64,000 nucleotides of DNA from Escherichia coli (lineage in GTDB: Bacteria; Pseudomonadota; Gammaproteobacteria; Enterobacterales; Enterobacteriaceae), in assembly GCF_029227855.1 (NCBI RefSeq), contig NZ_CP074356.1; one strand, given 5' to 3'. This document shows, in pieces, positions 28,782 through 30,688 of the stretch. Both the position numbers and the translations under genes were made by a program. The notes under the pieces were generated by a model. That model had not been told where the DNA came from and did not search any database. It was given only the letters and a program-made list of their open reading frames with translations. Numbering within the stretch: the stretch's first letter is position 1; each line of letters opens with the position of its first letter.

Positions 28782-29045
28782 TCAGGCGCGGATTTGTTGT
28801 GATGTGGTTGTGCTCTGGCAGATGGCAACGTGTGCGACGTCCACCAGTTTATTTAACTGACTAAACAGTAAGTCGACCGACCGTGGGCTGGCAACGGTCA
28901 ATTCGATATTTATATTTTGTGCATCGCTGGCGGCAGCCATATTCATTGAGCAGACGTGGAAACCACGATGACGCACCACGCGTAAAACACGTTCTAAGGT
29001 TTCCGGATTGAAGCGAGCCGATACATTGACCTGATGTTGCATCAT
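28782..29045 (-). CDS. ilvM: Acetohydroxy acid synthase II, small subunit
   Basis: 87-aa [43 protein letters not shown], recognised as IlvM; 4-nt overlap with ilvG. Confidence 0.93.
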
Positions 29046-30688
29046 GATAATTTCTCCAACATTTCTGAATTACTGGCGCCAGGCGGCACCAGCGGCCAGA
29101 CGTTCTCAAGTTCGTCGATTGAGACATGAAGCAGGTATGGCCCATCACTGTTCAGCATGGTGTCGAGTGCCGCTTCAACCTGGTCTTTACGGGTGATGTG
29201 TTGGCCAGGGATGCCGAAGGCGCTGGCTAACATGAGGAAATCGGGGTTATCAGTAAGGGTGGTTTCGCTGTATCGTTCCTGAAAAAACAGTTGCTGCCAT
29301 TGTCGAACCATCCCTAACCGTTGGTTATCGAGTAAGACGATTTTCAACGGTAACTGCTTGCGTTTTACGGTGCCCAGCTCTTGCACATTCATCATGAAAG
29401 AGCCGTCACCGGAGATACAGACGACAGTATCGTTCGGTCGTGCGACTTGTGCGCCAACCGCCGCTGGTAAACCGAAACCCATGGTGCCTAAGCCGCTGGA
29501 GGTAATGAAATTTTCCGGGCGAGTGTGTGCGATGTGCTGCGCGGCCCACATCTGGTGCTGCCCCACATCTGTGGTCACGACGCAATCCGCAGGTTTACGA
29601 TCCGACAGTTGTTTTAACAACAACGGCGCGTAGATAGCGTCACCGGGATGGTCGTAACGCCAGGTATGTTCATCACGCAGCTGCGCGCAGTATTGCTGCC
29701 AGTCATTGATATTTAACGGCTGCTGTAATGCTGGTAACAGAGCATTTAAATCACCTTGTAATGCCACATGTGCCTGACGCAGCTTGTTCATTTCTGCCGG
29801 GTCGATATCCATATGGATAACACTGGCGTGTGGTGCGAAGGTGTTCAGTTTGCCGGTCACCCGGTCATCAAAACGTGCACCCACGGCGATCAGCAAGTCG
29901 CACTCCTGCACCGCGAAGTTCGCCGCTTTGGTGCCATGCATTCCCAGCATGCCCAGGTAGTACGGATAATCTGCTTCAACTGCGCCCAGCCCTTTCAGCG
30001 TGCAGGTGGCAGGCATTTTTGTGGTAGCGAGAAATTCTCGTAAAGCAGGAACTGCCTGCGCCATACCCACGCCACCACCAACGTACAGCATCGGTTTTTG
30101 CGCTTTTGCCAGCATCTGGCGCGCTTGCTCAACTTCGGCATGTGGGAAAGTCACTTCGTTTTCAACGGTGGTGAACCACGGTTCCAGGTCACCGCTGGCT
30201 AGCTGGATATCTTTTGGGATATCGACCAGAACCGGACCAGGACGACCTGAGCTGGCAACGTCGAATGCTGCAGCCATGATGCGCGGCAACTCTTCCAGCG
30301 ACTGCACCAGAAAGCTGTGCTTGGTACAGGCTAACGACAATCCCAGGACATCCACTTCCTGAAATGCGTCGGTGCCGATAAACGGTGCGGACACTTGACC
30401 GGTGATGGCAACGACAGGGATGGAATCTAACAGTGCGTCCGCAAGCCCGGTTATCAGGTTGGTTGCGCCCGGACCAGACGTGGCGATACATACGCCAGTT
30501 TTACCGGTAGCACGGGCATAACCGATAGCCGCCATTGCCGCACCCTGCTCATGTCGGCACAGCAAGTGCTCCACGCCGCCGTCATACAATGCATCGTAAA
30601 CCGGCATAATTGCGCCACCCGGATAACCGAAAACGGTGTTCACACCCTGTGCCCGCAACGCATGTACCACCCACTGTGCGCCATTCAT
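29042..30688 (-). CDS. ilvG: Acetohydroxy acid synthase II, large subunit (intact)
   Basis: Uninterrupted 548-aa [65 protein letters not shown] (TPP-dependent enzyme). Confidence 0.95.

Follow-up and report, generated by a model that had tools for sequence, protein, structure and literature searches.

A described counterpart of the locus considered here is ilvG of Escherichia coli K-12, which is annotated in MG1655 as a pseudogene (b4488, 1645 nt). PMC8605374 describes its frameshift together with valine sensitivity and polarity (primary reports: Lawther et al. 1981; Parekh & Hatfield 1997) and credits Parekh and Hatfield 1997 with linking the untranslated part of K-12 ilvG to polarity on the distal genes. 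Strains W, B and Crooks are reported to have an intact gene (PMC3032704; for strain B also PMC3446290), and expression of ilvGMEDA in strain B exceeds that in K-12 (PMC3446290). Acetohydroxy acid synthase (AHAS) II is reported to be the isozyme required by uropathogenic E. coli growing in human urine, and the poor growth of MG1655 in urine has been explained by the K-12 frameshift (bioRxiv 10.1101/2025.10.31.685768). That wild E. coli carries an intact ilvG, with K-12 as the exception, is already known and a textbook fact.

Among the related enzymes, the closest solved structure is that of the E. coli AHAS I large subunit IlvB (PDB 6lpi), which aligns with IlvG over its full length (E = 7e-162); a structure of E. 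coli AHAS II was not found among the PDB matches listed (best 60 of 125). IlvB and the plant and yeast AHAS belong, as does IlvG, to a three-domain thiamine-diphosphate fold family. AHAS I and AHAS III differ from AHAS II in being inhibited by valine and in pairing with IlvN or IlvH rather than with IlvM.

The window, by which we mean the whole 64-kb stretch of DNA analysed, contains an uninterrupted ilvG on its minus strand. We consider it to be the ordinary wild-type gene of a natural, non-K-12 Escherichia coli, with a probability of about 0.95.

Reading frame, partner genes and leader of the ilv operon

The following genes of the operon and the junction between ilvG and ilvM were located in the window:

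24371–25915, minus strand: ilvA, biosynthetic threonine deaminase, 514 aa, intact (VCSW8 annotation)
25918–27768, minus strand: ilvD, dihydroxy-acid dehydratase, 616 aa, intact (VCSW8 annotation)
27833–28762, minus strand: ilvE, branched-chain amino acid aminotransferase, 309 aa, intact (VCSW8 annotation)
28782–29045, minus strand: ilvM, AHAS II small subunit, 87 aa (NF008362, Pfam ACT_5)
29042–29045, minus strand: ATGA overlap of the ilvG stop and the ilvM start (direct sequence reading)
29042–30688, minus strand: ilvG, AHAS II large (catalytic) subunit, 548 sense codons and TGA, intact (open reading frame list, NCBIfam and Pfam)
30691–30741, minus strand: ilvX, 16-codon small open reading frame directly upstream of ilvG (VCSW8 and MG1655 annotation)

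The ilvG frame runs from an ATG start to a TGA stop and codes for 548 residues with no internal stop, as read from the open reading frames listed for positions 28000–32500 of the window; a frame of 548 codons would stay open by chance with p ~ (61/64)^548 = 4e-12. A preliminary description of this DNA had given ilvG as intact, 548 codons long and located at 29042–30688, which agrees with the single frame found, the minus strand being added here. Its identification of the gene is borne out by the protein families and by annotation. IlvG scores 1072.7 bits against NF006524, the NCBIfam equivalog for the acetolactate synthase 2 catalytic subunit (cut-off 738), residues 1–547 covering profile positions 1–547 of 548, which places it in that family, and 716.6 bits against TIGR00118, the biosynthetic-type large subunit (cut-off 538.35). 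The three Pfam domains of the TPP enzymes, N, M and C, are found at residues 1–115 (PF02776), 186–321 (PF00205) and 374–522 (PF02775), far above their cut-offs. In strain VCSW8 the identical sequence is annotated by RefSeq as ilvG (WP_001012602.1), and the allele is 100% nucleotide-identical to the RefSeq-annotated ilvG of at least 23 complete genomes from unrelated sources. The protein has Glu47 (within RHEQG), GDG at 427–429, Asn455 and Trp464. We take Glu47 to be the catalytic glutamate and GDG...N (427–429, Asn455) to be the metal/ThDP cofactor motif, and Trp464 is presumably among the important AHAS residues.

The junction of ilvG and ilvM reads GAAATTATCATGATGCAACAT, where ...TTA TCA TGA contains the ATG of ilvM, so that the two genes have 4 nt in common, the overlap that the preliminary description had reported. 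From the reading frame, ilvG is predicted to be translated as a single 548-residue thiamine-diphosphate enzyme, with its stop codon overlapping the ilvM start. IlvM matches the profile for the acetolactate synthase 2 small subunit (NF008362) with 133.9 bits (cut-off 68). The operon is complete on the minus strand, in the order ilvL-ilvX-ilvG-ilvM-ilvE-ilvD-ilvA, and is followed by ilvY and ilvC, according to the RefSeq annotation of VCSW8 mapped to the window; all the mapped ilv genes are intact. The assignment to AHAS II is also in keeping with the position of ilvM immediately downstream of ilvG and with that of ilvG in ilvLXGMEDA, behind the ilvL attenuator.

Upstream of ilvG lie the elements of the leader:

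30708–31000, minus strand: ilv operon 5' leader region, cis-regulatory (Rfam RF02744, 159.9 bits, gathering score 88)
30772–30805, minus strand: ilv attenuator, a G+C-rich hairpin followed by U8 (RNA fold)
30828–30926, minus strand: ilvL, a leader peptide of 32 aa with many Ile, Leu and Val codons (NF007744)

The ilvL frame scores 81.9 bits against the ilv operon leader peptide profile NF007744 (cut-off 59). The leader RNA (30765–30930, minus strand) folds well (−63.8 kcal/mol, z = −4.19), and its terminal hairpin is followed by UUUUUUUU. A simple terminator scan missed this minus-strand attenuator, which the RNA fold revealed. Both ilvL and the attenuator are identical to those of K-12, and the 560 nt upstream of ilvG, which comprise the promoter region, ilvL, the attenuator and ilvX, differ from K-12 at one nucleotide, an A/G difference two bases past the ilvL stop. 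Because the leader region is the same except for this nucleotide, attenuation at ilvL is expected to operate as it does in K-12.

The K-12 lesion and ilvG across the species

The preliminary description had stated that ilvG of this DNA is free of the K-12 frameshift and had proposed a pairwise alignment with MG1655 as the check. Global alignment with b4488 places the lesion at a single site:

29709–29712, minus strand: K-12 frameshift site, ATAT at gene nt 977–980, both AT units kept in the window (global alignment with b4488, blastn)

The window reads AAATATCAATGAC where K-12 reads AAATCAATGAC, K-12 being one AT short, and the blastn indel list agrees. After the loss of AT the K-12 frame continues as PLNQ and then meets TGA, a stop at codon 328, in agreement with the lesion described in PMC8605374; the window has neither the 2-nt loss at nt 977–980 nor the TGA at codon 328. 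The same lesion has been called 'two separate base pair insertions' (PMC3032704), whereas in our alignment K-12 is short by 2 nt relative to all the natural alleles examined. Of the indels that separate the 64 kb from MG1655, this 2-nt one alone falls in a functional protein-coding gene, the remaining ones being intergenic or located in the spacer of the rRNA operon or in the yifN pseudogene (blastn indel list).

In its surroundings the K-12 pseudogene is much like the gene of the window, with which it shares the locus, the flanking genes, the promoter, leader, attenuator and ilvX (the single upstream nucleotide aside) and the IlvM protein. The difference lies within ilvG, where K-12 lacks the AT and carries 37 substitutions besides (97.75% identity). 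When the K-12 frame is repaired in silico, six residues differ from IlvG of the window: E140A, C146S, A222T, H333Y, S342T and H494P, the K-12 residue being written first and that of the window second. Of the neighbouring genes, ilvM has two nucleotide differences from K-12, both synonymous, so that the protein is that of K-12, ilvX has none, and ilvE differs at 12 nucleotide positions and at no residue.

Of 5,426 complete E. coli genomes, 5,425 carry the gene. An exact match to a 65-mer across the K-12 junction occurs in only 340 of the 5,426, and the 40 of these that were listed are K-12 laboratory derivatives (MG1655, C600, DH5alpha, J53, ER strains etc.) or unlabelled strains whose genome size is like that of K-12. 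When 40 ilvG matches were taken evenly down the ranking, 37 had the 1647-nt span, one was a deletion mutant (NCCP12480), and the two with 1645 nt are apparently laboratory strains derived from MG1655 (genome of ~4.63–4.64 Mb, with the locus at MG1655-like coordinates). O157:H7 F6294, IAI39, Ecol_AZ153 and M-17, which were picked across the identity range of this spread sample, and strain 19-5 all have an annotated intact 548-aa ilvG with ATAT at the site (5/5); nucleotide identity to the window gene is 94.7–98.3% for the first four and 97.87% for 19-5. The ilvG of strain 19-5 is intact while being only 2 nt away from the repaired K-12 sequence, and the deletion is therefore specific to the K-12 line. 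Natural E. coli ilvG (VCSW8, B, W, Crooks, O157:H7, IAI39, CFT073) is alike in its 1647 nt and 548 aa, in the ATGA overlap and in the order of the operon, and shows allelic differences only with respect to the window. Between the window allele and six others dN/dS is 0.014–0.057, and the gene is therefore under strong purifying selection.

An intact ilvG is thus the norm of the species and tells little of the strain beyond its not being K-12. In that sense it is a strain marker: the window is not K-12, and it is K-12 that is atypical at the ilvG locus.

Some further observations concern the variation of ilvG in the species. Codon 494 of MG1655 ilvG in the repaired frame (positions 2038–2040 of the MG1655 locus sequence, L004) codes for His, and for Pro in 6/6 natural alleles; the change falls downstream of the K-12 frameshift, where ilvG is no longer read in frame. 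The base at codon 494 and one other account for all the differences between strain 19-5 and the repaired K-12 gene. Across E. coli, ilvG is more diverse than its surroundings, with 744 genomes at 90–95% identity to the window gene and no chromosome in that band for either of the 24-kb flanks (1–24000 and 40001–64000). In the clinical isolate NCCP12480 (locus sequence L010, positions 3001–5234), ilvG is joined at about nt 954 to the middle of ilvA, with the loss of ilvM, ilvE and ilvD, and this isolate should be a branched-chain amino acid auxotroph.

Predicted function, polarity and the Ala140 variant

By what is known of the family, IlvG and IlvM would be made together and form AHAS II. As this is the isozyme without valine feedback, the strain is expected to grow when valine is present. 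We infer a functional, valine-insensitive AHAS II and valine resistance from the intact state of both ilvG and ilvM and from published work on K-12 alleles that have been restored (PMC8605374).

Ribosomes would read the full ilvG up to ATGA, and the ~660-nt untranslated stretch that follows the K-12 stop would be missing here. Since the whole of ilvG would be translated, the polarity on ilvM, ilvE, ilvD and ilvA that has been ascribed to the K-12 frameshift should be absent. The leader and attenuator being like those of K-12 but for one nucleotide, the absence of this polarity is therefore the only regulatory difference expected with respect to K-12. The remark in the preliminary description that an intact ilvG bears on attenuation and polarity in this strain is reasonable in this light. 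The rules established in K-12, i.e., valine toxicity, low ilvEDA expression and the effects of frameshift polarity on growth rate, should not be transferred to this strain. The intact ilvG is physiologically relevant, yet it is the expected state.

An open frame might still encode an enzyme impaired by a missense change, for example Glu140Ala, in which case the strain would behave towards valine as K-12 does. Residue 140 (30269–30271, minus strand) is Ala in the window and Glu in the six other E. coli alleles compared, and the position aligned with it is Asp in E. coli AHAS I and Glu in Arabidopsis AHAS, so that an acidic residue is replaced here. Against an impaired enzyme, the exact 65-mer containing Ala140 occurs in 451 of the 5,426 complete genomes, the full-length allele recurs unchanged in the genomes from unrelated sources mentioned above, the dN/dS values denote purifying selection, and the catalytic and cofactor-binding residues named above are all present. 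Such impairment is improbable, though it is the alternative that fares best. Because of this distribution of the 65-mer and of the whole allele, Ala140 is taken to be an established natural variant and is unlikely to be disabling. A subtler effect, in which Ala140, found in ~450 genomes of one E. coli lineage, might alter the kinetics, the stability or the subunit interaction of AHAS II, is given slightly less weight still; if true, it would mean a different branched-chain amino acid physiology in that lineage.

Source of the window and other features

The window is collinear with positions 3,917,249–3,981,293 of MG1655 in reverse orientation, at 98.6–99.1% identity, with 695 mismatches over the 64 kb. 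Gene order is that of MG1655 throughout. In the distal part of the operon, ilvD and ilvA differ from K-12 at 49 and 26 positions, respectively. Among complete genomes VCSW8, isolated from topsoil in Hong Kong, comes nearest, with 13 mismatches over 49 kb (99.97% identity); it is also the best match for both flanks of the window, closely followed there by A15 (otter), EC23-1020 (urine) and isolates from cattle. The closest complete genomes are environmental and animal isolates, for example VCSW8 and A15. For three overlapping segments of 24–25 kb from the window, no identical genome was found among the 5,426 complete E. coli genomes.

The comparison collection consisted of genomes labelled E. 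coli only, so that relatives could not surface, and the source might then be a close relative with the same operon, such as Shigella or a cryptic Escherichia clade, rather than E. coli proper. This is very improbable, since the identity shared with VCSW8, an E. coli, across 49 kb and the near-perfect matches of the flanks correspond to less than the distance between species, and the gene order of MG1655 is kept as well. An origin from a K-12 derivative whose ilvG function was restored, whether by reversion or by engineering, the case that the preliminary description had named as contradicting its attribution to a non-K-12 E. coli, is rejected on divergence and has a negligible probability: although ilvG+ revertants of K-12 arise readily in the laboratory, being valine-resistant after deletion of the T (nt 982) or the G (nt 983) of the premature TGA (PMC8605374), and although repaired derivatives of MG1655 have been constructed (bioRxiv 10.1101/2025.10.31.685768), the described spontaneous revertants, having lost one base of the TGA, would have 547 codons and not 548, neither the substitutions in ilvG beyond the indel and those in ilvD, ilvA and ilvE nor the mismatches to MG1655 across the window fit such an origin, and the best matches come from soil, otter, urine and cattle. 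The attribution to a natural, non-K-12 E. coli stands.

Several minor features of the window were also recorded. An rrnC-type operon at 34219–39441 (minus strand) comprises 16S, tRNA-Glu, 23S, 5S, tRNA-Asp and tRNA-Trp and holds 12 of the 13 mismatches to VCSW8, seven of them within 11 bases of the 23S gene (35811–35821); this cluster looks more like differences among the copies of the rRNA operon, or gene conversion, than like point divergence. A PemK/MazF-family toxin pseudogene at 20832–21280 (plus strand) corresponds to yifN of K-12 and is annotated with a frameshift in VCSW8 as well as in K-12; at only 95.6% identity to K-12, with indels of +1 at 21041 and −1 at 21187, it has diverged further than its neighbours. 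The alignment with K-12 breaks at 21405–21413. The origin oriC is found at 55274–55505, between mioC and mnmG, and 231 of its 232 positions are identical to the annotated MG1655 oriC. Two RNA families score above their gathering scores: the TrxA 5' UTR thermometer (RF02773, 78.8 bits) at 15504–15603 (minus strand), upstream of trxA, and StyR-44 (RF01830, 122.9 bits) at 37553–37661 (minus strand), which lies in the 16S-23S spacer and adjoins the 23S gene.
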